The notes beneath the pieces were generated by a model. The model made no database searches. It was not told the DNA's origin and saw nothing but the letters and a program-made list of their open reading frames with translations. Both the position numbers and the translations under genes were made by a program. 32,000 nt of DNA from Geotalea daltonii FRC-32 (GTDB lineage Bacteria; Desulfobacterota; Desulfuromonadia; Geobacterales; Geobacteraceae): positions 4,080,001 to 4,112,000 of the forward strand of contig NC_011979.1 in NCBI RefSeq assembly GCF_000022265.1, in the 5' to 3' direction. This document shows, piece by piece, positions 1,098 to 20,885 of this stretch (the first letter of the stretch is position 1; each line of letters begins with the position of its first letter).

Positions 1098-1436
1098 CTA
1101 TTTACCCCTAAATTCCAACACAACAGAATCGTTACTGGAATTTTTCAAGCGAATTCCTCTGTTATTTGCGACAGCTAGCCAGAATATAGCCATGAATGAT
1201 GAGAGAGGCATTAAGACGGCAAACCGGGACAACGTATAAAATGTACCCAACTTGTTACCTTGCTTTTTCCTTTCGCCTTCTTGCATGTGCATTAACAATT
1301 GCAATGATGAAAGGATGACCCTAGCTCGCCAACCGCATATTGAGACGTCAAAGTCCTTGTTTTCATTCAACAACCTTTTTGCCTTCGCACCAAAGCCACG
1401 TTCACTATACTCTAGCACTTCCGCCTGATTTCCCAT
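1098..1436 (-). CDS. Small membrane protein, candidate cognate immunity protein of the upstream Rhs
   Basis: A 112-aa ORF whose ATG (1434-1436) lies 1 nt after the Rhs stop codon (1438-1440). It has one clear hydrophobic helix, FAVLMPLSSFMAIFWLAVA. Its position matches the usual rhs-rhsI arrangement. I recognise no family. Confidence 0.5.
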   Translation of the reverse strand: MGNQAEVLEYSERGFGAKAKRLLNENKDFDVSICGWRARVILSSLQLLMHMQEGERKKQGNKLGTFYTLSRFAVLMPLSSFMAIFWLAVANNRGIRLKNSSNDSVVLEFRGK

Positions 1437-1437
1437 T

Positions 1438-4400
1438 TTAATTCCCCATCGTTACACAGCTAATCCATGCTGCCGTACACGCAGCAAGACAGACTCCCTT
1501 ACCCACAACACCTCCCGGACAGCGGGTGGTGCAAAAAGCCGTACACACTCTGAACATTGCACTACATCCGGTTCCAGGTGGCTTCGGTGGCTTTATCGGT
1601 GGTCTTGGCGGTGGTGGTATTGTTGGAATTGTGGGTGGTGGTTTTGGCAGTGGTCCTACAGCAGCTTCTCCAGTGGGATCGGTCCAATTCACAGGGTTGT
1701 TGTCGACGTAAGCATAGAGATTTATCCCCCCAGCGAACCCTATCGGATCTTTTTGAATATACCGCCCGATTGCCGGATTATAATCCCTAAAATAATTGTA
1801 GTTGTTCCCCGTCTCGCCGTCTGCATACTGGCCCGGAAATCTGAAATTGAGACTGGCCAAGCCAGTGATAGTTGCATTATCCCCAAATGGCCTTGCCTCT
1901 ACCTCCCACGCTTTAGCCCCGGTTCCGTCAGTCATGAAGGTAGGAGTGCCTAAATGATCGGTATGGATGTAGCTTATGCCGGTTGCGTCGATCTTGGCCA
2001 GCGGCTGGTTGCTCAGGTAGATGTAGTCAGCTTGGGTGCCGTCTGTAGCTGATTCAGCTATGAGTTGTCCTTGCTGATCAAAGATGAAGTAGGTTGTAAT
2101 GCCGTTGACTACCTTCTTGGCGCGTTGCCCATTGGCGTTGTAACTGTAGCTGCCTGTTTGCTCTGCAGTTGCCTGGATCAACCGCTGATTCTGGCTATAG
2201 GTGTATGTCTTGCTGTTTTCGTTCGTTGTGTTGCCGTTGGCGTCATAGCTGAAACTGGCGGGACTCGGGCCGGAAACGCTGGTCAGCTTGTTTGTACCCG
2301 GCTGATAACTATAACTGCTGGTACCGCTGCTGTCGGTCTGAGAGGTTCTGTTGCCAACCCCGTCATAGAGCCAACTTATCGTTCCCCATGGCCCGCTGCC
2401 GCTACCCAGCCGGTCGAGATTGTCGTAAGTGTAGGTCTTGTTCTTGGTATTGTCGAGATTATTGGTGATGGCGGTGATATTGCCATTAGCATCATAGCCG
2501 TAAGTGAGGTTTTGGACAGTTCCGGTAACGATGCTCGCTGGCCGATATTGGTTGTCGTAGGCTATGGTTCTTGCTAAACCGTTGCCGTAGGTGAGTGTTG
2601 TCAGGCCGCCGAAGGGTTTGTAAGTGATACTGCCGGCAAGGGTCGTGGTTATCCCGCCTAGTGTGCCGGTTACGCTGGTTACCCGGTCATTGGTGTAGTT
2701 GTAGGTTATAACCCTGCTGCTTGGATAGGTGATGGTTTTGGTATTGCCGTTCATGTCGTAGGTGTACTGGGTTGTGTAGGCAATACTATCAATTGTTCTT
2801 GTTTCCTTGGCTACCTGTCCTTTCTTCGTGTACTCATAGCTGGTTGTGCCGCTCTGGTCAGTGACAGCGCAGAGCCACCCCTTGCCGTTTGGACAGGTAT
2901 CGTAATTGTAAATGTTTGCCGAGTCTGTGGGAAAGGTTGTCGTGATGAGGCGGTTGGCGGCATCGTAGGTATAGGTTATGGTAATGCCTTTTGCGTCGGT
3001 CTTTGTCTTTAAATTGCCAGCAGGGTCATAGGTGTACGTGGTAGTGCCGGTATCGGGTGAGATGGCTTGATAGACCCTGCCCTTGTCGTCGTACTTGTAG
3101 ACAGTGCTATTGTTATTGCCGTCAGTGACGGTGGCCAGATTGTTGTTTGTGTTGTAGCTGAAGCCTGTGGTGATAGTACCAGGTTGGATCGTAGCGGTAA
3201 CCCGCCTCAAGGCGTCGTACTGGCTGGTGATGGTACTGCCTTTCGGGTCCTTGCTGCTGGTCACATTGCCGAGGCTGTCGTACCCGTACTCTGTGTAGGT
3301 TGCGTCAGGATTTTTGACCTGCTTGAGCCTGTTGAGGGCATCGTACTGGTAGCTGAGGGTCTTTTGCAAAACGCCTGTTGGGTCTTTGATCTCTTCTTTA
3401 AGCTTGTTCCCTTCACTGTCGTAGCTGTAGTTGAGGCTATTCCCAAGTCCGTCGCTAATTTTGCTGAGTTTGCCATTGGTGTCATAGAGGAAATCTAATC
3501 TATTCCCTTCCGGGAAAATCATGTGATCGATACGGTTTGCTACTCCACCGCATGAGCTGCAGCTGCCGGTGGTATAGCCGATCTGAGTAGCGGCGGTGTC
3601 TCCGGGTGCTTTGACGGTGAGTACGCGACCGACGGCATCATAGGTATAAAGGGTAGCATTGCCGTTGGAATCGGTGATAGTTCCTGGGTTGCCAAGGCCA
3701 TCATAGTTGTCATAGGTGGTGCCGACAACGGGCTCGGTTTTGGTAAGCATATTGCCGCTGGCATCGTAGGTGAAGGTGGTCACATCCTGAACATCTGTGC
3801 GAGGGCCGTCTATTTTTTTCAGCCGACTTTGGCTGTCATATTCGTAACTGGTGATGTAGCTGTACGGTGTACCATCGCCTAAAAGGCCTGTTTCGGTGGT
3901 ACTAAGGAGATTGCCTTTGGTGTCATAGTCGTTTGTGGTTACTCGATCCTGTGCAGGATTTACCACGCTTTTTACTTTTTCTGTCAGGACGTTACCGAAT
4001 ATTGGATGGTAGGTGTAGGTGGTGGTTTTTTCTATGGCGGTCCCTTGGGCATCGGTACGGGTAAGCAGGTTGCCAACTGCATCGTAGGTGTAATCAGCGG
4101 CGTATTTGAGCACAAGGTTAGGACTTGCCACCGTACCGGTGTTTTCCCACTTTTCTTCACGGGTGACCCACGTCTGACTGTTTCTGGTGTATCTCGTTTC
4201 ATTGCCGAAAGTATCGGTTACCTTGGCCACCTGCCCGCTCTGGTCAAAGGTGACAACGCGGTTCTGGGTGTTGAGAAGGGTCCCTGTCCCGTCTTTGATT
4301 GTAGTAGTAACTGTCGTTTTTTGCCGCGGAATTATGTAGCTGATGTCGATTGTGCCGGTACCGTGGGTTTGTTTGATAACCTTCCCCTGGGAATCATAGC

Positions 4401-5304
4401 TATTGACGTACATCCCTTCACCTTCGTCAATTGTGGTGAGAAGGTGCTTGTCGTTGGTATCGGTATAGCCATAGAGAGAATTAAACTGCGGAGATGATAC
4501 GGACTTCAAATTGCCGATACTGTCATGGTCGTAGGTGATAGTTCTCGAAAGGCTGTCGGTTATCTGGGTCAGCCGGCCTGTTTGTGCATCATAGGAAAAA
4601 TGAACCCACCTGCCGGTGGGCGTGCCGGTGGTGTCATGTTCTTCAACAGTACTTAACCTATAGTCGTACGCCACAACAAGCGGGTCCGTCTGTAGAACAT
4701 TCCAGGGTAACAGCCCCCAGAGTGGGGCTTTTGTGGCTGCTTCATAACTGAGAACAAGGGAGTTGCCTTTGATGTCTGTCATCGTGGTCAGACGACCATT
4801 AATATCGTATGTTTCCGCTGAGCCGTCTTTCTCAGTATAGGTATGGGTACCGTCGGGATTGGTGGTGAGGATTCCCGTTTCACCTACTGGCGTAGTAAAA
4901 CCTGTACCAGAAGGCATGAAATGTCTTTTCCAACCGGTTTCCTTCCGGATTATGACTGAGCCGTCGGCATAGGTATAAAGTCTCTTGTCGTAGTTATGCG
5001 CCCAACCATAACCCAAGGGGCTGTCATAGCCGGATACACTGGTGTATCGTCTTTTTATGTAGATGGGGAAGTTACCAAGAGTGAGATCGACCCTGCTTAA
5101 CGACTCCGTCCCTGAAACAAGGCTGATGGGTTTGCCAACATAGCCGGGATTCCCTTTTTCTATAATGGTTGCATCGGTCGCCTCGACCTTGTAATCCACA
5201 GCTGCACGAGAAACGCTTGGTAAAAAGCCCCCCCCTACACAGACTACGAGCAGCAGTCTCACCATGCCTATAAACCTTTTATTTTTAGCTACTCCACCCA
5301 GCAT
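1438..5304 (-). CDS. Rhs/YD-repeat protein with a Sec-type signal peptide and a short Pro-rich/Cys-rich C-terminal tip
   Basis: 1288 aa with a strong RBS (GAGGAGGGA) before the ATG at 5304. The N-terminus is MLGGVAKNKRFIGMVRLLLVVCVGGGFLPSVSRA/AV. A DUF6531-like entry segment follows (LVSGTESLSRVDLTLG...IKRRYTS...LGYGWAHNYD). Dozens of YD repeats follow (YTYDAVGN, YEYDSQSRL, YQYDALNRL and others). The Rhs core end reads YIHTDHLGTP...FPGQYADGETGNNYNYFRDYNPAIGRYIQKDPIGFAGGINLYAYVDNNPVNWTDPTGE and is followed by only 75 residues. Confidence 0.95.
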   Translation of the reverse strand: MLGGVAKNKRFIGMVRLLLVVCVGGGFLPSVSRAAVDYKVEATDATIIEKGNPGYVGKPISLVSGTESLSRVDLTLGNFPIYIKRRYTSVSGYDSPLGYGWAHNYDKRLYTYADGSVIIRKETGWKRHFMPSGTGFTTPVGETGILTTNPDGTHTYTEKDGSAETYDINGRLTTMTDIKGNSLVLSYEAATKAPLWGLLPWNVLQTDPLVVAYDYRLSTVEEHDTTGTPTGRWVHFSYDAQTGRLTQITDSLSRTITYDHDSIGNLKSVSSPQFNSLYGYTDTNDKHLLTTIDEGEGMYVNSYDSQGKVIKQTHGTGTIDISYIIPRQKTTVTTTIKDGTGTLLNTQNRVVTFDQSGQVAKVTDTFGNETRYTRNSQTWVTREEKWENTGTVASPNLVLKYAADYTYDAVGNLLTRTDAQGTAIEKTTTYTYHPIFGNVLTEKVKSVVNPAQDRVTTNDYDTKGNLLSTTETGLLGDGTPYSYITSYEYDSQSRLKKIDGPRTDVQDVTTFTYDASGNMLTKTEPVVGTTYDNYDGLGNPGTITDSNGNATLYTYDAVGRVLTVKAPGDTAATQIGYTTGSCSSCGGVANRIDHMIFPEGNRLDFLYDTNGKLSKISDGLGNSLNYSYDSEGNKLKEEIKDPTGVLQKTLSYQYDALNRLKQVKNPDATYTEYGYDSLGNVTSSKDPKGSTITSQYDALRRVTATIQPGTITTGFSYNTNNNLATVTDGNNNSTVYKYDDKGRVYQAISPDTGTTTYTYDPAGNLKTKTDAKGITITYTYDAANRLITTTFPTDSANIYNYDTCPNGKGWLCAVTDQSGTTSYEYTKKGQVAKETRTIDSIAYTTQYTYDMNGNTKTITYPSSRVITYNYTNDRVTSVTGTLGGITTTLAGSITYKPFGGLTTLTYGNGLARTIAYDNQYRPASIVTGTVQNLTYGYDANGNITAITNNLDNTKNKTYTYDNLDRLGSGSGPWGTISWLYDGVGNRTSQTDSSGTSSYSYQPGTNKLTSVSGPSPASFSYDANGNTTNENSKTYTYSQNQRLIQATAEQTGSYSYNANGQRAKKVVNGITTYFIFDQQGQLIAESATDGTQADYIYLSNQPLAKIDATGISYIHTDHLGTPTFMTDGTGAKAWEVEARPFGDNATITGLASLNFRFPGQYADGETGNNYNYFRDYNPAIGRYIQKDPIGFAGGINLYAYVDNNPVNWTDPTGEAAVGPLPKPPPTIPTIPPPPRPPIKPPKPPGTGCSAMFRVCTAFCTTRCPGGVVGKGVCLAACTAAWISCVTMGN

Positions 5305-5348: not shown

Positions 5349-5855
5349 TTAGTGGCCTGCAAAACCTGCTGACCGATCATCTGGTCCTGGTCCTGGTCCT
5401 GGTCCTGGTCCTGGTCCTGGCCCTGGCCCTGGTCCTGGCCCTGGCGGCGGTGGCGGCGGTGGTGGCCCACAAAGAGAGCAGGAATCTCCGTTGTTGCAAC
5501 AAGCATTGCCGCAACAGGGATCATTACTGCCACAGCAAGGGTCAGTACTGTTACAGCATTTGTCGGTCGGATCGGAACATAACCCTGTGTAAAGGATGCC
5601 ACAGAAGTCATTTCCGCCTTCAATCACAACCTGACCACAAGTCGTACATACTTCAGGGGGATAATAAAGCATCTCAAATCGCGTACAACCACCAGCTTTA
5701 TCGCAGAATGCCTCGGCAACAGAGATGGCTTCAGCTTTCGTATCACATTTTGATGGTCCACACAAACTGACATCCCAACATTGCGCGAAAGATAAATCAG
5801 GCACTAAGACCATGATCATGATTAAGTAACTGACTGTATGAATAAGAACTTTCAC
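5349..5855 (-). CDS. Secreted Cys-rich protein, paralog 1 (DPCCG-repeat module + poly-Pro + (GP)n linker + GFAGH tail)
   Basis: 168 aa with a GTG start at 5853-5855 and AAGGAT 9 nt upstream. The signal peptide is MKVLIHTVSYLIMIMVLVPDLSFA/QC. The mature part has 19 Cys and ends CSDPTDKCCNSTDPCCGSNDPCCGNACCNNGDSCSLCG-P8-(GP)n-DDRSAGFAGH. A paralog lies at 6383-6934. Confidence 0.8.
   Translation of the reverse strand: MKVLIHTVSYLIMIMVLVPDLSFAQCWDVSLCGPSKCDTKAEAISVAEAFCDKAGGCTRFEMLYYPPEVCTTCGQVVIEGGNDFCGILYTGLCSDPTDKCCNSTDPCCGSNDPCCGNACCNNGDSCSLCGPPPPPPPPGPGPGPGPGPGPGPGPGPGPDDRSAGFAGH
5381..5466. repeat. Coding microsatellite: ~10.5 copies of CTGGTC/CTGGCC (Gly-Pro codons on the minus strand) followed by a GGC/GGT run (poly-Pro)
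   Basis: Read directly from the sequence. Hexamers run 5381-5444 and the poly-Pro codon run is 5445-5466. The repeat also generates the artefactual low-complexity shadow ORFs at 5264-5770 and 5318-5623. Confidence 0.95.
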
Positions 5856-6104
5856 CTATTTGTTATCCTTTTGGCTGAATTTGAAATTCTCGCTTATCCA
5901 TAAACCTACTTTTTCAGGTTGCTCAAGACTTTCATTCATTTCAAGGCAGTATTTGAAATTGTAAGCTATCGCTGTAGAAAATGGTAAGACAGAACAAGCG
6001 AACAGTCCCCTTCTTACTTAAACTTTGCTTTAGTTACTACACCCACGACGTCCCCTCCTCCTCAAAAACACTTTCCCTTCGAGAGATCTAACTCCAGTAA
6101 CAAT

Positions 6105-6262
6105 TTAACGGCCTGCAAAATCAGGTAGATCTGATGGTGGCGTCGGTCCAGGTCCTGTTGATCCCGGTCCGGTCGGCCCAGGTCCTGTCGGTGGTGAAGG
6201 TGGCGGTGGCGGGCCACAAGAGAGCAGGAATCTCCATTGTTACAACAAGCATTGCCACAGGG
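6105..6262 (-). pseudogene. Frameshifted, 5'-truncated remnant of a third Cys-rich paralog
   Basis: The reverse strand reads ..RPCGNACCNNGDSCSL, then lacks one T relative to paralog 1 (ctctcttgtggcc versus ctctctttgtgggcc). With the frame restored it continues CGPPPPPSPPTGPGPTGPGSTGPGPTPPSDLPDFAGR* with the stop at 6105-6107. Similarity to paralog 1 stops abruptly upstream, at an in-frame TAA. Confidence 0.6.
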
Positions 6263-6382
6263 TCTTTATGTCTTCGGAATGGCATTAAATCTCCCTCGAC
6301 AGATCGTGCTTCACGCTGCATCCTGTCAAAAAGTGAGTTAGGCGTAATACGAAAGGAGGCAAAAGAACAGCTGTACTCCCTT

Positions 6383-6934
6383 TTATTTGCCAGTAAACCC
6401 CGAAAGATCTGAATCTGGTGCTCGATTTTGTCCGTTTGAGCCGTTTGAACCATTTGAGCCATTTGAGCCCGGTGGTGGCGGGCCACAAGTCACGCAGGAA
6501 TCATTATTGTTGCAACAATCATTGCCGCAACAGGGATCTTTACTGCCACAGCATTTGTCGTAAGGATTTGTGCAGCAAGGATTGGTTGGATCAGAGCAGT
6601 TATTGCAGTAAATCGCTATATTAACTTCAGCCTCTGGATAACATGTACATATAGTTTTTGCACCATCCCAACAAAATCTTTGGCTATATTTAACAACAAG
6701 AGTACGTCTTGAACCGTGGTAAATTTGATCATTATATGGAGCATCACCTATTATTGAACAGCTACAGAACGCATTACCACTGCTCCCGCAAAAGACAGTA
6801 TTAACATGATCAACAGCTTGATCACGAGTCCAACAATCATCAGCAACAGACAAGTTTTCAAAACATAGAACTAGAAGCAAGGTAAAAACAATGTAATATA
6901 TTTTATAAAGAAACCTGCTGATATAGCTCATCAA
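6383..6934 (-). CDS. Secreted Cys-rich protein, paralog 2 (DPCCG-repeat module + poly-Pro + (GSN)4 linker + GFTGK tail)
   Basis: 183 aa with TTG at 6934 or ATG at 6931 as start, and GGAGG at 6944-6948 (reverse strand). The signal peptide is ...FTLLLVLCFENLSVA/DDC. The mature part has 19 Cys and ends CSDPTNPCCTNPYDKCCGSKDPCCGNDCCNNNDSCVTCGPPPP(GSN)4GQNRAPDSDLSGFTGK. Confidence 0.8.
   Translation of the reverse strand: MMSYISRFLYKIYYIVFTLLLVLCFENLSVADDCWTRDQAVDHVNTVFCGSSGNAFCSCSIIGDAPYNDQIYHGSRRTLVVKYSQRFCWDGAKTICTCYPEAEVNIAIYCNNCSDPTNPCCTNPYDKCCGSKDPCCGNDCCNNNDSCVTCGPPPPGSNGSNGSNGSNGQNRAPDSDLSGFTGK
6432..6467. repeat. Coding 9-nt tandem repeat, four copies (CCGTTTGAG / CCGTTTGAA / CCATTTGAG / CCATTTGAG), encoding (GSN)4
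   Basis: Read directly from the sequence. Confidence 0.95.
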
Positions 6935-7012: not shown

Positions 7013-10000
7013 TTAATCGCCTACACCCAAATTTCCCCTAGTGACAGACGAAGCACCAGTAACTGGATCGGTCGCCTGGATCCAAACTGTATAGTCTCCT
7101 TCCTCGCTCACAGCAAATCCATTGCCGGTTGCATCGGTGGCTTTCCATTCAATCTCATACTCTCCTGCCGGCTGGAGGACATGATCGACTAGAGTTATTC
7201 CTAATGCCGTTGGTGGCAGCATCTTTACCGTAATATATGCCTGCTTGGACACGGCATATTTCAATCTGGTGAACTGTCCATATGAGAAGTGCAGTTGATA
7301 AGGGTCAGTGCTGACATAGGTGATCTTTGGGGTGTTGCCGGTTGCAATGATGAAGTTCTCGGCAAGTAGGGAAGAAACCGAGCAAGACGCTGTGCCCCCG
7401 CCATTCAGCATGACGTTTAAGGGATTCCTCCCATCCCAATTGGTGGTATAGGTACCCGGAGTGTAGGGTATTGCATCGACTATCTTGAAGTTTTGGCTAC
7501 CCCATAGGATATTGATCGTGACGCGTTCTGGTTGAGTAACGGAGTAGGTAATTGGAAGAGGGACGTTCCTGCGTGGATAGTAATCCCCCTGGCTGCATGT
7601 GATGCTCCCCTGACCACTCGGCGGTAGCGGAGAGTAGCCGTCGGTTCTTGTCCCATCAGAGGCATTCAGTATATACAGATACGCCTCATCCAAAACGGTT
7701 TTGCCGGTCGAATCGGCACCATTCCAGGTATATGAATAACTGCCAGCGGTCAGACAGCTTATTGAAGCTTGGTACACCGGAGTACCATTGGTACCGAGCT
7801 TTTCCGGTATGACACTCAAAGTCACTGTTGCCGGGCTGTTGATGGTGAATGCTATGGTCGTAGATTCCCCTAAGGCTGTGTTTAACGTGTTCTGGCTGGC
7901 TGATATCGAGGAGAGGATCAGGTTATTCACGGTCACGGGTATAGCTGTTACTGCTCTGTTGCCGGCCTTATCTGTGGCAGTTATCTTCATCTGATACTCG
8001 CCATTCTCTAACCTGATCTCGTTTTTCAAATCATTGGTGATCCACACTGCCAGCGTACCTGAGGTGACTGGCATACTTGACGACGCGAAAAGAGTCCATT
8101 GCCCCGTGCCGGATGCTGCCCCATATTCCACTGTGTAAGTATCGAAATTGGTATCCGCAGCAGTTCCGGTAATGGTCGCCGTGTTCTGCAATACCCCGCC
8201 TGAAACAGGCGCTGTAATGGAAACAGTCGGCAGCGTGGTATCAACTTTTATGGTGCCTGTTTTAGGTGAAGCTCCCAGAGACGACACTGGATCAAGAGCA
8301 TTGAATGCATAGGTATATGTGTCGTTAGGCACAACCACACCTGCAGAATTACGGCCGTCCCAGGCCTGGCTGAACGCAGAGCTACCTTGAGTTGTAAGGG
8401 TCCTGACAACAGTACCGGTTGAGTTGCTTAACGTTACGGACCAATTGACCGGGTAGCTGGCCGTCGCGCTAAGTAGCGACGAATCCTTGGTACCATCGCC
8501 GTTCGGTGAAAGGTAAGTCTCCGACGAATTTGCATTCTGAATCCAGAGGAGCCTGATGCGTGCCGCTTTTACTGTTGCATTCCCGGCATTATCGGTGACG
8601 GTGAGGCGCAGGGTGTATACGCCTCCAGTGGCATTGGTGAGGTCCCAGGCATACAAAAGGTTACCTTGCACTGGAACTGTTGCGCTCCTAAGGGCACTCC
8701 AGGAAATCGGGTTGTCTCCTGCCCCATACTCAAGGGTGTAGTTCTTGAAATCGGTAGGATCGGAGGCGGTGCCGGTAACATTGACGATGGTCCCGCCGGA
8801 AAAGATCTGATCATCAGTCGGCACATCGAGAATGGCCACAGGAAGTTGGCGGAATACCTTTACGGTTCCTTGTAAGGGAGAGGCCGCTTCCAAAGTCGCA
8901 GGATTTACCGCTTCTATCTTGTAGGTATAATTTCCATCCGCTACTTTCACAGACTGGCTGTCTTCGCCAAACCATCTCTGACTGATGGAAGTGCCGGAGC
9001 CGGTGAAAATTCTGACGACGTTATTTCCGCTGTCGGTGATAGTGATGGTCCAGTTGGCATTGGCGGAGATGAATGCCCCGAAGGTGAGATAATCCCCATC
9101 AGGATTGAACGCTGCTGGCGAAACCTTGACATTGCTGAAAGTCACTCCAGTCCCTGGAGTCTGGCCAATCCAAGGATTGTAGAGTACCTTGTCGCTGACG
9201 CTGTTGCCGGTGCCGGAAGGGTTGCTTGCATGGGTTGGTCCGGAGTCTGCCCCCCACCAATTATTTCTTGCGTCAACATCTACAGTCGTGGAACTGTTCC
9301 ATACACCTGCGGTGGAATTGCCGTAGATTCGTGAATTGACGATGTAAGGGTTTGAAGAAGTGGCATAAACACCCCACTTGTTGGCTGTAACCGTGCAACC
9401 AACCACCTGAGGGATGTTTTGTGCACCATATACATAGATGCCGCTTCCGGCACTGTTTCTGATTGTGGAATTACGGATCACTGGCGAAGAAGAATTAAAG
9501 ACAACGTTTGCGTTATTGTAGTACCCTCCTGAGCCTCCGTATTCGACGACAATGTTATTCAATATACTGCCGCTGGCAGAGTCACCGGAGAAGGTTATAC
9601 CCGACCAGCTTCCGGCAGTAGGCGTACCCTGACTGGAAGTAAAGGTGATCGCTGCCGTCCCTCCATCGGCAATGATGGACCCCCTGGAAGATCCCGAACC
9701 AATCTGCAGCGAGGTGTTTGTGTTAAATTTCACCACGACTCCCGGATCGATGGTCAGGGTAGCGGTGGTGACGGTGTCCTTAAAAACATAGACATTGCCG
9801 AGAACAATATATGGTGCTACCCACTTCTTCCAAAGAGTGTTTTGCGTCAGATACTCCCCGACAACCTCGATTTTGCCGGTTGCGGTAAGTCCGCTGAAGG
9901 TGTTTTCAGACAAAATCCGGTTTATCAAGGCAGCCCCTGCATGGGGTGGCGAATTATCCCCATTGCTGAAGGTATTGCCGGTGATGGTAGGGGTGATGCC

Positions 10001-13000
10001 GGTGGATGCGAGGTAGATGCCATTGGCAATGGTTGAATTCGTGACTGACAACATTGAAGTGGAACTGTTCAGGTAAAGGCCGTACTTGCCAGTGCTATTG
10101 ACGATGGAGACGCTGTAATTGGAAACTGTTGGAGAGCCGCTTCCGTAAATGCCATGACCGGTGGTGTTGGTATTGGTTAAGCTGCCACCGGTAATGATGG
10201 GCGATGAGGCAGAAAGATTGATACCGTAGCTGCCGTTGTTGGTAAGAGTGACATTCTCCAGCACCGGGTTACTATTAGAAAAGCTAGCATAGCCCGTCAT
10301 GTCTGTTATGGTGCAGTTTCTAAAAACAGGTGAAGCGGAGTTGATACTAAAGCCGGTGGTATATTGAATGTCGGCAATTTCGATTACTGATGTTGCATCC
10401 ACAGTGCCGTCATAATAGGTAAGGCCTGCCCATGTACCGCTGATGCCGCTTCGGGTGAAGGTGATACGATTTGATGGTGTTCCCTGGGCTATCAATGCCC
10501 CCTGGTTCGTGCCACTGCCGATCTGAAGTCCGGTGCTGGTCGCAAACTTGATGACGGTTCCCGGTGCAATGGTCAAGGTCGAGGCGGTTGTCGTGGTGTT
10601 GTAGACGGAAACAGTGCCGGAGACCACGTGATACGGAGCTGCCAGTGGGCTCCAGGTTACATTACGGTTCACCTGTTCGCCCACGATCTCGATTCTGCCG
10701 CCTGAAGTAAGGCCAGTTAGGGCGTTGTTGGCTATAAGCTGCCCGACTATGTTCGCCCCTACATGGATCGGAGAGCTATCCAGATTAGTGAAGGTATTGC
10801 CGGTAACGGTCGGGGTAATGCCGGTGGATGCGAGGTAGATGCCATTGGCAATGGTTGAGTTCGTGACTGACAACATTGAAGTGGAACTGTTCAGGTAAAG
10901 GCCGTACTTGCCAGTGCTATTGACCATAGAGACATTGTAATTCGTAATGACCGGTGCCCCGTTGCCATAAATACCATGGCCGGTGGTGTTGGTGTTGGTG
11001 TTGGTTAGGCTGCCACCGGTAATGATGGGCGATGAGGCAGAAAGATTGATACCGTAGCTGCCGTTGTTGGTAAGAGTGACATTCTCCAGCACCGGGTTAC
11101 TATTAGAAAAGCTAGCATAGCCCGTCATGTCTGTTATGGTGCAGTTTCTAAAAACAGGTGAAGCGGAGTTGATACTAAAGCCGGTGGTATATTGGATGTC
11201 GGCATTCTCGATTACTGATGTTGCATCCACAGCCCCGTCATAATAGGTAAGGCCTGCCCATGTACCGCTAGTGCCGCTCCGGGTAAATGTAATCCTTTCC
11301 GTCGTCGTCCCTTTTGCGATTAGTGCCCCTTGATTGGCACCACTTCCTATGTATAGCCCGCTACCGCCTGCAAATAATTTAATTGTTGTTCCTGGCTCGA
11401 TAGTCAGAGTAGCAGGCGAAATGGTATCTTTGTATACGTAAATGGCTCCTGAAATCACATAAGGCGCAATCTGTTTCCGCCACAGTGTGTCCCTGTTTAT
11501 CTGCTCGCCTACCACCTCGATCTTGCCGGCAAAGGTCTGGCCGGTCAGGGTGTTGTTGGCGATGATCTGGGCAATGATATTGGCTCCCGCATGAAGGGGG
11601 GAGTTATCTAAATTAGTGAAGGTGTTGCCGGTGATAGTCGGAGTAATGCCGGTGGAGCCAAAGTATATGCCATTGGCGATGATAGAGTTGGTAACACTGA
11701 GGGCTGAGGTCGTACTGCCGAGGTAAAGACCATACTTGCCGGCACTGTTGACGATGGAGACGCTGTAATTGGAAATTGTTGGGGAGCCGCTGCCATAAAT
11801 GCCATGGCCGGTGGTGCTGGTGTTGGTTAAGCTGCCGCCGGTAATGATGGGCGAGGAATTCGAAAGGTAGAGGCCATAGCTGCCATTGTTGGTGATGGCA
11901 ACATTCTCCATGATCGGATTGGCGGAAGAAAGATTAATCCCATATCCCGTTACGTCTGTTATGGTGGAGGTTTTGATTGTAGGAGAAGCAGATGTGATAC
12001 TCAACCCGCTATTGTACTGGACATCGGCGTTTTCGATGACGGTTATGGCATCAACAGTGCCGTCTTGGAAGGCGATGGTTCCCCAAGTCCCGGTTGTGCT
12101 GCTTCGGGTGAAGGTAATTCTCTCTGTCGTCGTCCCTCTGGCGATGAGTGCTCCCTGGCTTGTACCGTTGCCAATCTGGAGCCCGGTATTCGGGGCAAAT
12201 TTGATCATGGTGCCTGGTGCAATGGTTAAGGTAGAGGGGATGGCCGTCGTATTGTAAACCGAGACCGTGCCGGAGACTACCCAGTAAGGAGCAACCAACT
12301 TGTTCCACGTTGTGTCCTGGGAAACCTGCTCGCCCATGACCTCGACCCTGCCCGTGGAAGCAAGGCCGGTCAGGGTGTTGTTGGCGATGATCTGGGCAAT
12401 GATATTGGCTCCCGCATGCAGGGGCGAATTATCCAGATTGGTGAAGGTATTGCCGGTAACGGTCGGGGTAATGCCGGTGGATGCGAGGTAGATGCCATTG
12501 GCAATGGTTGAGTTCGTGACTGACAACATTGAAGTGGAACTGTTCAGGTAAAGGCCGTACTTGCCAGTGCTATTGACCATAGAGACATTGTAATTCGTAA
12601 TGACCGGTGCCCCGTTGCCATAAATACCCTGACCGGTGGTGTTGGTATTGGTTAAGCTGCCACCGGTAATGATGGGCGATGAGGAGTTCAGGTAGATGCC
12701 GTAGCTGCCGTTGTTGGTAAGAGTGACATTCTCCAGCACCGGGTTACTATTAGAAAAGCTAGCATAGCCCGTCATGTCTGTTATGGTGCAGTTTCTAAAA
12801 ACAGGTGAAGCGGAGTTGATACTAAAGCCGGTGGTATATTGGATGTCGGCATTTTCGATTACTGATGTTGCATCCACAGTGCCGTCATAATAGGTAAGGC
12901 CTGCCCATGTACCGGTTGTGCCGCTTCGGGTGAAGATAATTCTCTCTGTCGTCGTCCCTCTGGCGATGAGTGCTCCCTGACTGGCACCACTTCCTATGTA

Positions 13001-14107
13001 TAGCCCGCTGCCGCCTGCAAATTTAATAGCCGTACCAGGCTCGATGGTCAGGGTAGCAGGGGAAATGGTATCTTTGTATACGTAAATGGCTCCTGAAATC
13101 ACATAAGGGGCAATCTGTTTCCACCACAGTGTGTCCCTGTTTATCTGCTCGCCTACCACCTCGATCTTGCCGGCAAAGGTCTGGCCGGTCAGGGTGTTGT
13201 TGGCGATGATCTGGGCAATGATGTTGGCTCCCGCATGAAGGGGGGAGTTATCTAAATTAGTGAAGGTGTTGCCGGTGATAGTCGGAGTAATGCCGGTGGA
13301 GCCAAAGTATATGCCATTGGCGATGATAGAGTTGGTAACACTGAGGGCTGAGGTCGTACTGCCGAGGTAAAGACCATACTTGCCGGCACTGTTGACGATG
13401 GAGACGCTGTAATTGGAAATTGTTGGAGAGCCGCTGCCATAAATGCCATGGCCGGTGGTGCTGGTGTTGGTTAAGCTGCCGCCGGTAATGATGGGCGAGG
13501 AATTCGAAAGGTAGAGGCCATAGCTGCCATTGTTGGTGATGGCAACATTCTCCATGATCGGATTGGCGGAAGAAAGATTAATCCCATATCCCGTTACGTC
13601 TGTTATGGTGGAGGTTTTGATTGTGGGAGAAGCAGATGTGATACTCAACCCGCTATTGTACTGGACATCGGCGTTTTCGATGACGGTTATGGCATCGACA
13701 GTGCCGTCTTGGAAGGCGATGGTTCCCCACGTCCCGGTTGTGCCGCTTCGGGTGAAGGTAATTCTCTCTGTCGTCGTCCCTCTGGCGATGAGTGCTCCCT
13801 GACTGGCACCACTTCCTATCTGCAATACGGTATTGGAAGCAAATTTAACCACAACGCCAGGTTCTATGGTGAGGGTAGCTGCTGTGGTACTGGTCCCATA
13901 CACCTGAACAGTTGAAGTGACATTATAAGGGCTACCGGCCAGAGTCCAGGTTGTATCCGTGGAAATGACACCTCCCACCGTAGTATCTGCAAAAGACGGC
14001 AGAGCATGACTTATCAGAATGAACAAAAAGAAAAGGAGTGTTTTGAGTCCCTTCACCACACCCTCCTGTAAGGTTATTTGATTTAGAACTATTTTGACGG
14101 CATACAC
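7013..14107 (-). CDS. Giant secreted/surface protein: about six tandem parallel-beta-helix modules followed by FlgD-Ig-like and other Ig-like domains
   Basis: 2364-aa ORF. The likely true start is the GTG at 14054-14056, which lies 5 nt after AGGAGG (14062-14067, reverse strand). That start gives the signal peptide M-KGLKTLLFFLFILISHALPSFA/DTT. The modules begin with W..APY...G.V.V......LTIEPG..IKFA....L.IGSG.SQGALIA.GTT.ERI.FT. They continue with short N/S/T/G-rich beta-helix rungs (NNGSYGLYL, SPIITGG). The C-terminal third (about 7013-9165) has repeated FlgD-Ig-type signatures such as SPAAFNPDGDYLTF...WTITITDSGNNVVRIF...WFGEDSQSVKVADGNYTYKIEA and LSPNGDGTKDSS...WDGRNSAGVVVPNDTYTY. Confidence 0.95.
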   Translation of the reverse strand: MYAVKIVLNQITLQEGVVKGLKTLLFFLFILISHALPSFADTTVGGVISTDTTWTLAGSPYNVTSTVQVYGTSTTAATLTIEPGVVVKFASNTVLQIGSGASQGALIARGTTTERITFTRSGTTGTWGTIAFQDGTVDAITVIENADVQYNSGLSITSASPTIKTSTITDVTGYGINLSSANPIMENVAITNNGSYGLYLSNSSPIITGGSLTNTSTTGHGIYGSGSPTISNYSVSIVNSAGKYGLYLGSTTSALSVTNSIIANGIYFGSTGITPTITGNTFTNLDNSPLHAGANIIAQIIANNTLTGQTFAGKIEVVGEQINRDTLWWKQIAPYVISGAIYVYKDTISPATLTIEPGTAIKFAGGSGLYIGSGASQGALIARGTTTERIIFTRSGTTGTWAGLTYYDGTVDATSVIENADIQYTTGFSINSASPVFRNCTITDMTGYASFSNSNPVLENVTLTNNGSYGIYLNSSSPIITGGSLTNTNTTGQGIYGNGAPVITNYNVSMVNSTGKYGLYLNSSTSMLSVTNSTIANGIYLASTGITPTVTGNTFTNLDNSPLHAGANIIAQIIANNTLTGLASTGRVEVMGEQVSQDTTWNKLVAPYWVVSGTVSVYNTTAIPSTLTIAPGTMIKFAPNTGLQIGNGTSQGALIARGTTTERITFTRSSTTGTWGTIAFQDGTVDAITVIENADVQYNSGLSITSASPTIKTSTITDVTGYGINLSSANPIMENVAITNNGSYGLYLSNSSPIITGGSLTNTSTTGHGIYGSGSPTISNYSVSIVNSAGKYGLYLGSTTSALSVTNSIIANGIYFGSTGITPTITGNTFTNLDNSPLHAGANIIAQIIANNTLTGQTFAGKIEVVGEQINRDTLWRKQIAPYVISGAIYVYKDTISPATLTIEPGTTIKLFAGGSGLYIGSGANQGALIAKGTTTERITFTRSGTSGTWAGLTYYDGAVDATSVIENADIQYTTGFSINSASPVFRNCTITDMTGYASFSNSNPVLENVTLTNNGSYGINLSASSPIITGGSLTNTNTNTTGHGIYGNGAPVITNYNVSMVNSTGKYGLYLNSSTSMLSVTNSTIANGIYLASTGITPTVTGNTFTNLDSSPIHVGANIVGQLIANNALTGLTSGGRIEIVGEQVNRNVTWSPLAAPYHVVSGTVSVYNTTTTASTLTIAPGTVIKFATSTGLQIGSGTNQGALIAQGTPSNRITFTRSGISGTWAGLTYYDGTVDATSVIEIADIQYTTGFSINSASPVFRNCTITDMTGYASFSNSNPVLENVTLTNNGSYGINLSASSPIITGGSLTNTNTTGHGIYGSGSPTVSNYSVSIVNSTGKYGLYLNSSTSMLSVTNSTIANGIYLASTGITPTITGNTFSNGDNSPPHAGAALINRILSENTFSGLTATGKIEVVGEYLTQNTLWKKWVAPYIVLGNVYVFKDTVTTATLTIDPGVVVKFNTNTSLQIGSGSSRGSIIADGGTAAITFTSSQGTPTAGSWSGITFSGDSASGSILNNIVVEYGGSGGYYNNANVVFNSSSPVIRNSTIRNSAGSGIYVYGAQNIPQVVGCTVTANKWGVYATSSNPYIVNSRIYGNSTAGVWNSSTTVDVDARNNWWGADSGPTHASNPSGTGNSVSDKVLYNPWIGQTPGTGVTFSNVKVSPAAFNPDGDYLTFGAFISANANWTITITDSGNNVVRIFTGSGTSISQRWFGEDSQSVKVADGNYTYKIEAVNPATLEAASPLQGTVKVFRQLPVAILDVPTDDQIFSGGTIVNVTGTASDPTDFKNYTLEYGAGDNPISWSALRSATVPVQGNLLYAWDLTNATGGVYTLRLTVTDNAGNATVKAARIRLLWIQNANSSETYLSPNGDGTKDSSLLSATASYPVNWSVTLSNSTGTVVRTLTTQGSSAFSQAWDGRNSAGVVVPNDTYTYAFNALDPVSSLGASPKTGTIKVDTTLPTVSITAPVSGGVLQNTATITGTAADTNFDTYTVEYGAASGTGQWTLFASSSMPVTSGTLAVWITNDLKNEIRLENGEYQMKITATDKAGNRAVTAIPVTVNNLILSSISASQNTLNTALGESTTIAFTINSPATVTLSVIPEKLGTNGTPVYQASISCLTAGSYSYTWNGADSTGKTVLDEAYLYILNASDGTRTDGYSPLPPSGQGSITCSQGDYYPRRNVPLPITYSVTQPERVTINILWGSQNFKIVDAIPYTPGTYTTNWDGRNPLNVMLNGGGTASCSVSSLLAENFIIATGNTPKITYVSTDPYQLHFSYGQFTRLKYAVSKQAYITVKMLPPTALGITLVDHVLQPAGEYEIEWKATDATGNGFAVSEEGDYTVWIQATDPVTGASSVTRGNLGVGD
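9830..13950 (-). repeat. Intragenic tandem array of ~822-nt (~274-aa) beta-helix modules, with a ~1644/1653-nt super-period at near identity
   Basis: The module-initial Trp codons fall at about 13948, 13126, 12304, 11482, 10651 and 9832. Shadow ORFs 13252-13449 and 11608-11805 differ by one residue. Shadow ORFs 13530-13802 and 11886-12257 are also nearly identical. A third B-type copy lies one module (822 nt) below the second (10001 versus 10823). Confidence 0.9.
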
Positions 14108-18786: not shown

Positions 18787-20661
18787 GTGCATGTAGTCCT
18801 GGCCTCCATCCACCCCTTTCCATCCCCCCAGGCGGTCCCTCTTGCCGCTGCCTGTCTGAAGGCAGCCCTGGACCGTGAGAAAGGACTCTCTGGCAAGATT
18901 TCCGTATCCCTCACCGCTACGTTTATCGGTACACCCCAAGAACAATTCATCGAAGACATCCTCAAGCTGGACCCTGACGCGGTAGGATTCTCCATGTACG
19001 TCTGGAATCGCAACGAGTGCCTCGGTATCGTCTCTGCGCTACGGCAGCTGATGCCACGATTGACGCTTTTTGCCGGGGGACCCGAGGCTACTGCCGATAC
19101 GGAGAGATTACTTGCCTCTTCCACGCTTGATTTTATCGTCGTCGGAGAAGGAGAATCCACATTCGTCGATGTCATGTCACGGATGACCCAGGGCAGCTCA
19201 CTTGCCGGAATCGAAGGCCTTGCCCGTGCGCAGCAAGAAGGCTTCCAGTCCTTTCCCCGGCACCCTGAGCCGGACCTGGATCAACTACCTTCACCATATT
19301 TATCGGGGGTCCTCGTTCCAAGCGAAGGGGATGGGGTATTATGGGAACTCTCCCGTGGCTGCAACTTTGCCTGCGAATTCTGCTTCGACCACAAAGGGGG
19401 CGTCGGCGTTAGGCATTTCTCCCTTGAGAGGATAACGCAAGAGCTGAATTTCCTTGTCAAGAGGAAGGTTGCCCAGGTCTTCGTTCTTGATTCCACCTTC
19501 AATCAGGATATGAAGCGGGCAAAAAAAATACTGCGCCTGATCAAAAAGGTGGCACCCCACATCCATTTCCACTTCGAGGTGAGAAGTGAGTTTATTGATG
19601 CGGAACTGGCGAGACTGTTCGCTGAAATCACCTGCTCTCTGCAGATAGGGCTGCAAAGCGCGGACCCGCTTGTACTGCGTAACGTGGGAAGAGTATTCAA
19701 CCGGCAGGACTTCAGCATCAAGATCGGCATGCTGAACAATGTCGGAGCAATCTTCGGCTTCGATCTGATCTACGGGCTACCCGGCGACAGCTTGGCCGGC
19801 TTCAGGCAAAGTCTTGATTTTGCCCTGTCCCTATATCCCAATCACCTGGATATCTTCCCCCTCGCGGTACTGCCCGGAACCCGTCTGGCCGAGCGGGCTG
19901 AGGAACTTGGGCTTGCCTGGCAAAGATCCGCGCCCTACACAGTTGCCTCATCTCCGACCTTTTCCGCGGCAGATATGGAGATTGCCCGAAGACTGGCCGC
20001 CGCCTGCGATATTTTCTACAGCAGGGGGAAAGCGGTAGCCTGGTTCAACTCGGTGCTTCAGTCTCTTCATCTCAGACCGGCTGCCTTGCTGGAATCTTTC
20101 ATGCTTTGGCTTAGCGAACAAAAAATTACGGTGACCGGTGAAGATCAATTGAGTGACGGGCAGATCCTGCAGATGCAACGCCGGTTCCTGCAATATCTTT
20201 TCACCGGGAAAAAAAGAGCTCAACTGATCCCGCTGGTTCATGACCTGGTGGATTTTCACTACTACTATGCATCAGCTCTTCTTTCTCCTCTGCCCGACCT
20301 CCCCACCGACAGGGAACTGGAGCACACCGATCTGCTCCGCGAGCCGCTCACCCTTTCCTCCTCCGCTATTCTTGCCAGATTCAATTTCGAGATAATCGAT
20401 ATTCTGGAGGCAGGGGAAATCGACCTGCGTGAATTTGCCGGCTGTTTCAAGCCCAGCGGGTCCTTCGCCGTCATATACCCACGGGCGGACGACGTTTTCA
20501 CCGAGTCACTGATTGAGCCTTATTACCTGCTACTGCAACGCCTTGGTTGCGGAAAGCCCGCCGGCGAAATCCTGACAGATATCGGACTTGCGGCTGAGGA
20601 AGCAAGCTCCTTTCTCGAGTTCGCGGCAGCAGAGGGTATTGTGACAATCAGTGGGAAATGA
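18787..20661 (+). CDS. B12-binding-domain radical SAM protein
   Basis: 624 aa with a GTG start. The N-terminal region is a B12-binding-like Rossmann segment. The radical SAM cluster motif is present in LSRGCNFACEFCFD (CxxxCxxC). A long C-terminal extension follows. Confidence 0.88.
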   Translation: MHVVLASIHPFPSPQAVPLAAACLKAALDREKGLSGKISVSLTATFIGTPQEQFIEDILKLDPDAVGFSMYVWNRNECLGIVSALRQLMPRLTLFAGGPEATADTERLLASSTLDFIVVGEGESTFVDVMSRMTQGSSLAGIEGLARAQQEGFQSFPRHPEPDLDQLPSPYLSGVLVPSEGDGVLWELSRGCNFACEFCFDHKGGVGVRHFSLERITQELNFLVKRKVAQVFVLDSTFNQDMKRAKKILRLIKKVAPHIHFHFEVRSEFIDAELARLFAEITCSLQIGLQSADPLVLRNVGRVFNRQDFSIKIGMLNNVGAIFGFDLIYGLPGDSLAGFRQSLDFALSLYPNHLDIFPLAVLPGTRLAERAEELGLAWQRSAPYTVASSPTFSAADMEIARRLAAACDIFYSRGKAVAWFNSVLQSLHLRPAALLESFMLWLSEQKITVTGEDQLSDGQILQMQRRFLQYLFTGKKRAQLIPLVHDLVDFHYYYASALLSPLPDLPTDRELEHTDLLREPLTLSSSAILARFNFEIIDILEAGEIDLREFAGCFKPSGSFAVIYPRADDVFTESLIEPYYLLLQRLGCGKPAGEILTDIGLAAEEASSFLEFAAAEGIVTISGK

Positions 20662-20885
20662 GGCGTTAATTCCCAGAAGCCTTTCCGGCAGGAACACATG
20701 AGCAATAGTTGTGTATATTGTATACTTTTTTCCTGTTGCTTTTTAATCTTCCCCATATTAGTATCCGGTCATTTGCTATGAGTGCCTTGCCATCAGCCTA
20801 TTTAACTTAGCAAAACCTCATTAATTGAACACAGCAGGCTATTCGCGTTCTAAGACGCTTACTTTGTCGTATGGAGGTTGTTTTC

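Follow-up and report, generated by a model that had tools for sequence, protein, structure and literature searches.

Small secreted cysteine-rich proteins encoded beside a Sec-exported Rhs toxin of Geotalea daltonii: candidate free-standing Rhs N-terminal domains

Introduction

What do the small cysteine-rich proteins do that Geotalea daltonii FRC-32 encodes between the gene for a giant secreted protein and the gene for an Rhs toxin, and is their role tied to that toxin? The two genes in question, here called P1 and P2, lie with the remnant of a third copy at 5349-6934 of the window, by which we mean the whole 32,000-nucleotide stretch analyzed here (positions 4,080,001 to 4,112,000 of contig NC_011979.1, forward strand; coordinates below count from its first letter unless another locus is named). 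An initial annotation, made from the sequence alone, had described the products as an unplaced family with a C-terminal module of adjacent cysteine pairs, and had suggested from their position that they act in the giant protein/Rhs system. We argue here that P1 and P2 are, with a probability that we place somewhat above even, free-standing versions of the N-terminal domain of the neighboring Sec-exported Rhs toxin, that is, adaptor or targeting heads encoded in trans.

The delivery of Rhs proteins via a type VI secretion system (T6SS) has been dissected in structural detail (PMC8765631, PMC8636562, PMC10684867); it is poorly understood by what route Rhs toxins with no more than a Sec signal get out of a Gram-negative cell and reach a target. 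N-terminal cleavage of Rhs proteins occurs right before the sequence PVSMVTGEELL, the start of the Rhs core, and requires glutamate residues; in PSPTO_5438 replacement of the second of two adjacent glutamates (E413A) inhibits cleavage, while replacement of the first (E412A) only attenuates it (PMC7170923). In Tse5 the cut separates K47 from P48, and a DUF6531 plug comes next (PMC10684867). RhsA is cut at P305, where its cork domain starts, and its cleaved N-terminal fragment stays attached and joins the cocoon to VgrG (PMC8765631). Rhs1 carries 289-PVYVASGE (PMC8636562), and the cleaved Rhs N-terminal fragment is described as remaining bound and linking cocoon to VgrG (PMC8765631, PMC8636562).

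Results

Two intact genes and a remnant

The initial annotation had placed two intact paralogs and one remnant in this interval, and the open reading frames (ORFs) of P1 and P2 have exactly the outer ends 5349 and 6934. From the ORFs and their translations, and for the remnant from the sequence, a three-frame translation and alignment to P1 and P2, the features are as follows:

5349-5855, minus strand: P1, small secreted cysteine-rich protein, 168 residues, GTG start
5784-5855, minus strand: P1 signal peptide
5580-5783, minus strand: P1 variable N-domain
5469-5579, minus strand: P1 11-cysteine DPCCG module
5352-5468, minus strand: P1 P8(GP)n linker and tail ...DDRSAGFAGH
5349-5351, minus strand: P1 stop codon
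about 6105-6267, minus strand: remnant of a third paralog
6383-6934, minus strand: P2, small secreted cysteine-rich protein
6842-6934, minus strand: P2 signal peptide
6599-6841, minus strand: P2 variable N-domain
6485-6598, minus strand: P2 11-cysteine DPCCG module
6386-6484, minus strand: P2 (GSN)n linker and tail ...DSDLSGFTGK
6383-6385, minus strand: P2 stop codon

The true start of P2 is probably the ATG at 6931, which gives a product of 182 residues; three runs yielded Logan contigs that encode exactly this product. The locus is present in runs SRR9436587/88 and SRR29904083/85. Upstream of P1, at 5987-5958, is a promoter-like site. Both proteins begin with Sec-type signal peptides, which end ...LSFA↓QC in P1 and ...LSVA↓DDC in P2 (arrows mark cuts or junctions throughout), and both then have the same order of parts: an N-terminal part of about 70-80 residues, the cysteine module, a run of prolines, a low-complexity linker and a short tail. 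The two are related at BLASTP E = 7e-6 with composition adjustment on. The remnant is the 3' end of a third copy, comprising the second half of a module, a proline/glycine-rich linker, the tail ...PSDLPDFAGR and its own stop; it has neither signal peptide nor N-domain, has lost one cysteine codon in frame, and carries a 1-nucleotide frameshift near 6218.

The linker DNA consists of tandem repeats in P1 (5381-5444, 6 nucleotides × 10.7), the remnant (6142-6192, 15 nucleotides × 3.4) and P2 (6435-6469, 9 nucleotides × 3.9), so linker length is likely to differ between strains; Logan contig L003 ends within the (GP)n repeat of the P1 linker (labels of the form L0xx denote loci or contigs, and P00xx the proteins of relatives, that were found in the searches described below).

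Many of the small proteins end at the Rhs plug boundary

The most informative feature of these genes, and one absent from the initial annotation, is that the tails of P1, P2 and the remnant match the residues that precede the N-terminal self-cleavage site of Rhs proteins. The Rhs protein of the window has, in order, its own signal peptide, a 24-residue N-terminal peptide ending ...NPGYVGK, the signature PISLVSGTE, a DUF6531 plug, a YD shell, an RHS core (with the motifs ...DPIGFAGG...NWTDPTGE) and a payload. A sequence search pairs its VGK↓PISLVSGTE with AGD↓PVSLVTGEE from PDB 8H8A, an Rhs-family protein; in PDB 8H8B the first glutamate of the signature reads alanine. The glutamate two residues after the glycine is kept in all Rhs proteins of these loci and aligns with the second glutamate of the published signature. 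By this alignment, self-cleavage of the window protein is predicted between K58 and P59 (at about 5131/5130). The ends of the small proteins (each followed directly by a stop codon) and the Rhs junctions of the same loci compare as follows:

Window: small-protein C-termini GFAGH, GFTGK and DFAGR; Rhs junction NPGYVGK↓PISLVSGTE
L015: small-protein C-termini PELAGV and PELAGK; Rhs junction NPAYAGK↓PISLFSGAE
L023 (P0009): small-protein C-terminus SGSGNNPGTAGNP; Rhs junction GPAFGGK↓PITLRSGDE
P0007 and P0008: small-protein C-terminus ...LAGKP; Rhs outside the contig

Across loci the Rhs junction has the consensus ...GK↓P[VI]SLxSGxE, and the free copies of the window, L012, L015, L023, P0007 and P0008 end ...AGK, ...AGR, ...AGH or ...VGK, or else ...AGKP or ...AGNP. 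In many free copies the last residue is thus that of the plug boundary or the next one. A segment of the L005 Rhs protein, SGSGVNPGFAGK↓P, is also similar to the P0009 tail.

Are the small proteins and the Rhs N-terminus ever one polypeptide? On the single contig of locus L012 they are: the third small copy continues in frame into Rhs, in an ORF that starts at an ATG at 4868 of that contig and encodes a signal peptide, an N-domain (containing GNCDAISEAASMM), a reduced module (CSDPTNPCCGSVDQYCGKTDPTAGN), a linker, the junction ...NDPARTER↓PVSLLSGVESFERTDL..., and Rhs. The fused Rhs has no separate signal peptide, and the joint lies exactly at the PVSLxSGxE signature, i.e. at the plug boundary. 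The two free copies of the same locus are collinear with the fused copy and stop at the joint residue (...NVGAKAGR and ...NNASVGK).

A different Rhs N-terminus was seen in L020 (10752-10860), where the predicted signal peptide cut, ...AHS↓APSPLSGAETF, would leave a mature Rhs that starts essentially at the plug and has no N-terminal peptide. The partner small protein in this locus, P0012, has no tail, and these two absences may co-vary, although this is a single case.

Gene order and the partner genes

The small genes, the giant gene and rhs are all on the same strand of the window, the giant gene ending 79 nucleotides before P2 and rhs starting 42 nucleotides downstream of P1. The partner genes and the ORF that follows them are these:

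1098-1436, minus strand: ORF of 112 residues directly after the rhs stop, with one hydrophobic stretch, outside the cysteine-rich family
1438-5304, minus strand: Rhs toxin, 1288 residues (Pfam RHS_repeat, 5.7e-75; DUF6531, 2.1e-14; RHS, 1.5e-7)
7013-14107, minus strand: giant secreted protein, 2364 residues (ORF; NCBIfam FlgD-like match)

The same order, giant gene, small gene(s), DUF6531-Rhs gene, was found wherever flanking DNA exists, and is conserved in 8-9 independent loci. A giant gene stands ahead of the small gene(s) in the window, L005/L013, L009, L012, L015, L016, L020, L025 and L026, and rhs comes after the small gene(s) in the window, L005/L013, L009, L012, L015, L020, L023 and L025. 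There are 1 to 3 tandem small copies per locus (three in L005; at least two in L007, L016 and L026). The Rhs payloads vary between loci, those of the window and L005 being unrelated, while the module of the small proteins stays the same. This conserved order, with a constant module beside varying payloads, supports a role in the giant protein/Rhs system and argues against a role in immunity; together with the in-frame fusion in L012 it strongly bears out what the initial annotation had proposed from position.

The giant protein is built of five right-handed beta-helix units of about 275 residues followed by FlgD-Ig/Big-like domains, and orthologues with Beta_helix, FlgD_ig, CHU_C and Big domains are present in L005, L012, L015, L020, L025 and L026. 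Within the gene the five units are tandem repeats of about 825 nucleotides (9726-13884) with pairwise identities of 63-96%, which suggests recent internal duplication or gene conversion.

The payload of the window Rhs (1438-1670, minus strand), which follows ...NWTDPTGE, is unusually small: about 75 residues, a proline-rich linker and then a hydrophobic 7-cysteine peptide, GCSAMFRVCTAFCTTRCPGGVVGKGVCLAACTAAWISCVTMGN. The L005 payload is different, also small, with 8 cysteines, and neither has a Pfam match. The 112-residue ORF at 1098-1436 has no significant Pfam or NCBIfam match; its position makes it a candidate for a membrane immunity protein against the Rhs payload. Downstream of the main rhs gene, L005 (10697-11935) and L015 (14808-15621) contain orphan rhs fragments, either the end of the YD shell with the RHS core or pieces from the interior. 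Such fragments are typical of rhs loci that exchange C-terminal cassettes.

Elsewhere in the window are glmS and glmU and, at 18787-22742 on the plus strand, genes for a 624-residue B12-binding radical SAM protein and a 623-residue multihaem c-type cytochrome with similarity to MtrC/MtrF. The latter pair, which has no connection with the small proteins, fits a Geobacter-like metal-respiring host, and this remainder of the window has the look of a Geobacter-type chromosome.

A rare family

P1 and P2 had been called unplaced, and so they remain: Pfam and NCBIfam give no match for P1, P2, the isolated module, the isolated N-terminal parts or any of the more than 20 members searched, and the PDB sequences give none at E ≤ 1 with a 14-sequence family profile. 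Kazal-type inhibitors appeared as weak PDB matches (E 0.007-0.3) with a module-only profile; we rejected them, as the alignments pair single cysteines with CC pairs and the matches are gone with the 14-sequence profile. Full-text literature searches returned nothing relevant on DPCCG motif variants or on Geobacter with Rhs and cysteine-rich.

Relatives were hard to find. Word-indexed searches with P2 alone and with a 3-sequence module gave none (P2 itself is missing from that collection), nor did the first pattern scans of genomes and metagenomes, whose patterns were overly specific. An exhaustive HMMER search of 1.84e9 representatives with a profile of the two mature proteins gave only 4 matches, all true relatives by eye; inspection of the DNA surrounding these matches gave further copies; DNA pattern scans of genomes and metagenomes with patterns derived from the family found L012, L013, L015 and L016; and the 14-sequence profile found 12 proteins in a collection of 5.8 billion. 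A search with a hidden Markov model (HMM) had been proposed in the initial annotation; together, the searches and scans gave about 20 distinct proteins from about 12 independent loci, of 131-241 residues as called (one call is over-extended). Their existing names are 'hypothetical protein' at most, and the named metagenome-assembled genomes (MAGs) are 'uncultured Geobacter sp.' (L012) and 'Geobacteraceae bacterium' (L013, which has the same genes as L005). Automatic gene calls misread cysteine-rich arrays, and database counts of the family are therefore underestimates; in L005 (4525-5046 and 5465-5700) one called 'gene' of 173 residues, and also the initial ~80 residues of P0001, turn out to be neighboring family members read out of frame.

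The N-terminal halves of P1 and P2 had been regarded as almost unrelated. This does not hold. Members share, after the signal peptide, a C-D-[TS]-x-x-E-A helix, a C-G-C strand, an invariant cysteine further on, and an aromatic residue 3-4 positions ahead of the module. With an HMM made from other loci's N-domains alone, P1 scores 21.6 bits and P2 16.1 bits, where the best of 400 shuffles reaches 10.3 bits, and the two halves are therefore divergent homologues. The family is rare and unannotated, and it is real.

The cysteine module

The module sequence of the initial annotation, with its DPCCG pairs, can be read back in both proteins. P1 has CSDPTDKCCNSTDPCCGSNDPCCGNACCNNGDSCSLCGPPPP and P2 has CSDPTNPCCTNPYDKCCGSKDPCCGNDCCNNNDSCVTCGPPPP, with the common pattern C-x6-CC-x5/6-CC-x5-CC-x3-CC-x5-C-x2-C. 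The CC pairs are spaced 7/7/5 residues start to start in P1 and 8/7/5 in P2, and the P1 module DNA has a 21-nucleotide period (5507-5558). Each mature protein does have 19 cysteines, as had been counted, but by that annotation's own pattern they divide 8 + 11 between N-terminal part and module and not 9 + 10, and the number 19 is not a constant of the family, the total ranging from 11 to 25 over 20 members. The reported lack of CXXCH heme motifs in P1 and P2 is correct. Most members have 11 cysteines in the module itself; P0004 has 9, proteins of the P0010 and P0012 types have 10, and those of the L012 type, in which xC, TA and HG stand in place of CC pairs, have 5.

Between P1 and P2 the module has a ratio of nonsynonymous to synonymous substitution (dN/dS) of 0.24 at dS 0.89 with 11 of 11 cysteines kept. 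The similarity therefore reflects coding sequence that has been maintained; neither chance nor low complexity accounts for it. Over the family the values are 0.14-0.24 at dS 0.4-1.0, again with all 11 cysteines kept between the paralogs compared. These data establish both the existence of the family and purifying selection on its module.

What holds such a module together? Its cysteine content is 29-30% (11 of 37-38 residues), nearly all residues are C, D, N, S, P, G or T, and hydrophobic residues are almost absent (the P1 module has no aromatic residue), so that with almost no hydrophobic core it must be held by disulfides or by metal. In favor of disulfides and a structural spacer, the losses of module cysteines are even in number (the L012 type lacks 6, P0004 lacks 2), and the DPCCG heptad also builds long arrays in other secreted proteins (below). 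In favor of metal or an unpaired thiol are the metallothionein-like density and number of cysteines and the presumed anaerobic life of the hosts. The total number of mature cysteines is odd in 14 of 20 members (not significant, with signal-peptide cuts read by eye), which is suggestive of one unpaired cysteine per protein; the giant protein has 7 cysteines and the mature window Rhs 11. A rigid cross-linked connector, stapled by disulfides or metal, is the most likely description of the module. Structure prediction, also proposed in the initial annotation, was run twice with AlphaFold2; models were obtained, but with predicted local distance difference test (pLDDT) values of 54 (2-sequence alignment) and 46 (6-sequence alignment) they are too poor to use.

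Discussion

A proposal: Rhs N-terminal domains supplied in trans

Whether the genes are fused or split, the mature products would be the same, a cysteine-rich fragment ending ...x-G-K/R and an Rhs cocoon starting P-V/I-S-L, and it is for this reason that we favor the reading of P1 and P2 as Rhs N-terminal domains encoded in trans. Five parts would make up each small protein: the signal peptide; a rapidly evolving alpha/beta head with the conserved C-D-T-x-x-E-A helix and C-G-C strand; the DPCCG module; a floppy low-complexity linker; and a tail, x-A/T-G-K/R/H, which would copy the residues before the Rhs self-cleavage site (P-V/I-S-L-x-S-G-x-E). A fused Rhs that cleaves itself would set free a product of the kind for which the split genes code directly. 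In the T6SS systems studied, the Rhs N-terminal domain determines carriage and delivery of the cocoon. By analogy with T6SS Rhs effectors, the small proteins would attach to the Rhs cocoon, either in the periplasm or at the cell surface, possibly through tail and module, and would then couple it to the giant beta-helix protein, to a target receptor or to both; several divergent heads per locus would give alternative specificities. Both the disulfide and the metal description of the module are compatible with such an adaptor.

A more elaborate form of this proposal, which we hold only tentatively and regard as doubtful, is a split Rhs in which an array of interchangeable, separately secreted heads docks on one cocoon through ...AGK tails that mimic the self-cleavage product, so that the same cocoon could be joined through alternative heads to the giant fibre or to receptors, in a Sec-dependent and T6SS-independent delivery in Geobacter-like bacteria.

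Several observations weigh against P1 and P2 being Rhs N-terminal domains. The L012 fusion is on a single MAG contig of 6.5 kb; in the window and in 7 other loci the small gene is separate. There is no tail in P0003, P0004 or P0012, and the L005 tails are only loose matches. The window small-gene tails and the 5' end of rhs have no similarity at the DNA level, only a short peptide motif in common; recent recombination therefore did not leave this match behind as a scar, and a shared repeat is in general unlikely to have made the assembly collapse. The window Rhs keeps its own signal peptide and a short N-terminal peptide with the same motif, so that a tail in trans is not obviously needed and would have to displace or coexist with that peptide. 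Finally, the upstream anchor helix that holds the N-terminal fragment in RhsA has no visible counterpart in the low-complexity linkers.

Other explanations

Could the copies instead be leftover 5' cassettes, the displaced N-termini of former rhs alleles, generated by recombination or duplication at the plug boundary and having little or no function, or serving as a reservoir for swaps? This would mirror the orphan C-terminal toxin cassettes known downstream of rhs genes, and it would account for copies that stop at the plug boundary, for the decayed remnant within the window array, for a copy number of 1 to 3 between loci, for the last copy being fused in L012 and for the orphan rhs fragments in L005 and L015. 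However, no intact copy lacks a start codon, a ribosome-binding site or a signal peptide of its own, the small-gene stops are not followed by rhs-like DNA, the arrangement is kept across divergent loci, and selection has preserved every module cysteine between paralogs as old as those compared above (dS 0.4-1.0). We consider displaced cassettes unlikely. The small proteins might also be secreted effectors themselves, disulfide-rich toxins or bacteriocin-like peptides whose variable head is the active part and which are co-expressed with Rhs. Their size, secretion and cysteine content, their location in a toxin locus and the rapid divergence of the heads of several paralogs per locus all fit this, but the copies are not each accompanied by an immunity gene of their own, it is the module and tail that are conserved and not the head, and a fusion to the Rhs N-terminus at the plug boundary befits a trafficking domain, Rhs payloads being C-terminal (PMC8636562). 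An effector role is accordingly improbable in our estimation.

Metallothionein-like metal-thiolate sites were raised in the initial annotation beside a disulfide-knotted stalk, and periplasmic or extracellular metallothionein-like proteins that bind Zn, Cu, Cd or Fe, with the Rhs linkage incidental or regulatory, would explain the composition of the module. The alpha and beta clusters of mammalian metallothioneins have 11 and 9 cysteine ligands, which equal the cysteine counts of the module (11, or 9 in P0004), and the odd cysteine totals noted above are unusual for exported proteins that are purely disulfide-bonded. Against this, Pfam has no metallothionein family match, strict synteny with the rhs and giant genes and the Rhs fusion argue for a role there, the L012-type copies have lost 6 of 11 module cysteines yet are retained in the same context, and the DPCCG arrays of ~25-30 units in large Planctomycetota proteins look like spacers. 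We think metal sequestration a poor prospect, although metal may act as a structural staple within the adaptor. Immunity proteins for the Rhs payload, lastly, would be expected to be small and encoded beside rhs, as these are; but the genes are upstream of rhs and a different small ORF (1098-1436) directly follows its stop, the same module accompanies the unrelated C-terminal payloads of the window and L005, and there are multiple copies, one of them fused to the Rhs N-terminus. Immunity is disfavored and is the least probable of these explanations.

The coexistence of fused and split forms leads to a testable idea, namely that the product of Rhs N-terminal self-cleavage would be a functional module that can also be supplied by a separate gene. 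The locus type is a defined three-part candidate system (giant beta-helix/Ig protein, cysteine-rich heads and DUF6531-Rhs) that is conserved in several uncultured Geobacter-like genomes, and two undescribed sequence entities, the CDTxxEA head domain and the DPCCG heptad repeat, are defined here. A metal-thiolate cluster outside the cytoplasm of an anaerobe, if true, would be of separate interest.

Comparison with known systems

Several known proteins resemble P1 and P2 in one respect or another. With one upstream cysteine counted, the window copies read C..C-x6-CC-CC-CC-CC-x5-C-x2-C, a ladder of four successive CC pairs between single cysteines that resembles granulin/epithelin (PF00396), a candidate that we rejected: there is no Pfam match at E ≤ 10, the spacings are shorter, and the 12-cysteine pattern is variable in relatives (five CC pairs, or 5, 9 or 10 cysteines). 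Like metallothioneins the module is about 30% cysteine, with CC pairs, few aromatic or hydrophobic residues and 11 cysteines; unlike them it is secreted, attached to a folded N-domain and encoded in a toxin locus, and no match to that sequence family was found. The same DPCCGxx heptad, or a PCCG[DN] pentad (the latter in a Myxococcales MAG), forms arrays in Planctomycetota and Myxococcota MAGs, likewise without a Pfam family:

L010, 9179-11689: DPCCGxx/PCCG[DN] array
L014, 9968-11950: DPCCGxx/PCCG[DN] array
L011, 9998-10549: DPCCGxx/PCCG[DN] array (same protein in L017-L019)

Unlike the present family, the Planctomycetota/Phycisphaera arrays have ~20-30 units in secreted proteins of 650-850 residues, with no CDTxxEA N-domain and no Rhs context. 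The arrays of both phyla probably represent either convergence or a separate recruitment of this repeat.

Among proteins with a YD shell, teneurins also have a cysteine-rich extracellular module (epidermal growth factor (EGF) repeats and a cysteine-rich region) N-terminal to the plug; they differ in being eukaryotic single chains with EGF folds and a different (FN) plug. The Tc (ABC) toxins are likewise multi-gene systems in which a YD/Rhs cocoon (PMC8765631) works with a very large separate delivery or binding protein. Here, in contrast, the giant protein consists of beta-helix units and Ig-like domains, the TcA and TcB families were not detected, and the cocoon is a single DUF6531-Rhs chain; small cysteine-rich partners are not known to be part of Tc toxins. 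Searches of NCBIfam for PEP-CTERM, GlyGly-CTERM, LPXTG and T9SS CTD sorting signals gave no match, and the tails are short, hydrophilic and without a transmembrane segment.

The closest parallel is with the N-terminal fragments of T6SS Rhs proteins (the PAAR-containing RhsNT of RhsA and Rhs1, the VIRN of TseI, and Tse5-NT), which couple the cocoon to its carrier (PMC7170923, PMC8765631, PMC8636562, PMC10684867). Like these, the L012 copy stands, on the one contig that shows it, directly before the DUF6531 plug, the small proteins end at the residue before the self-cleavage signature P-V-S-x-x-x-G-(x)-E, and they would be expected to be a separate polypeptide in the mature complex. Unlike these, the family is Sec-exported and not T6SS-loaded, is cysteine-rich and is usually encoded by 1-3 separate upstream genes; no VgrG or Eag genes are near, the neighbor being the giant beta-helix/Ig protein, and Pfam and NCBIfam searches of more than 20 members showed no similarity to PAAR (PF05488), prePAAR, transmembrane or VIRN regions. 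The small proteins thus fall within a known class, that of the accessory or N-terminal modules found in polymorphic Rhs toxins, and are not a categorically new system; their locus points to an unstudied, Sec-dependent arrangement for Rhs delivery.

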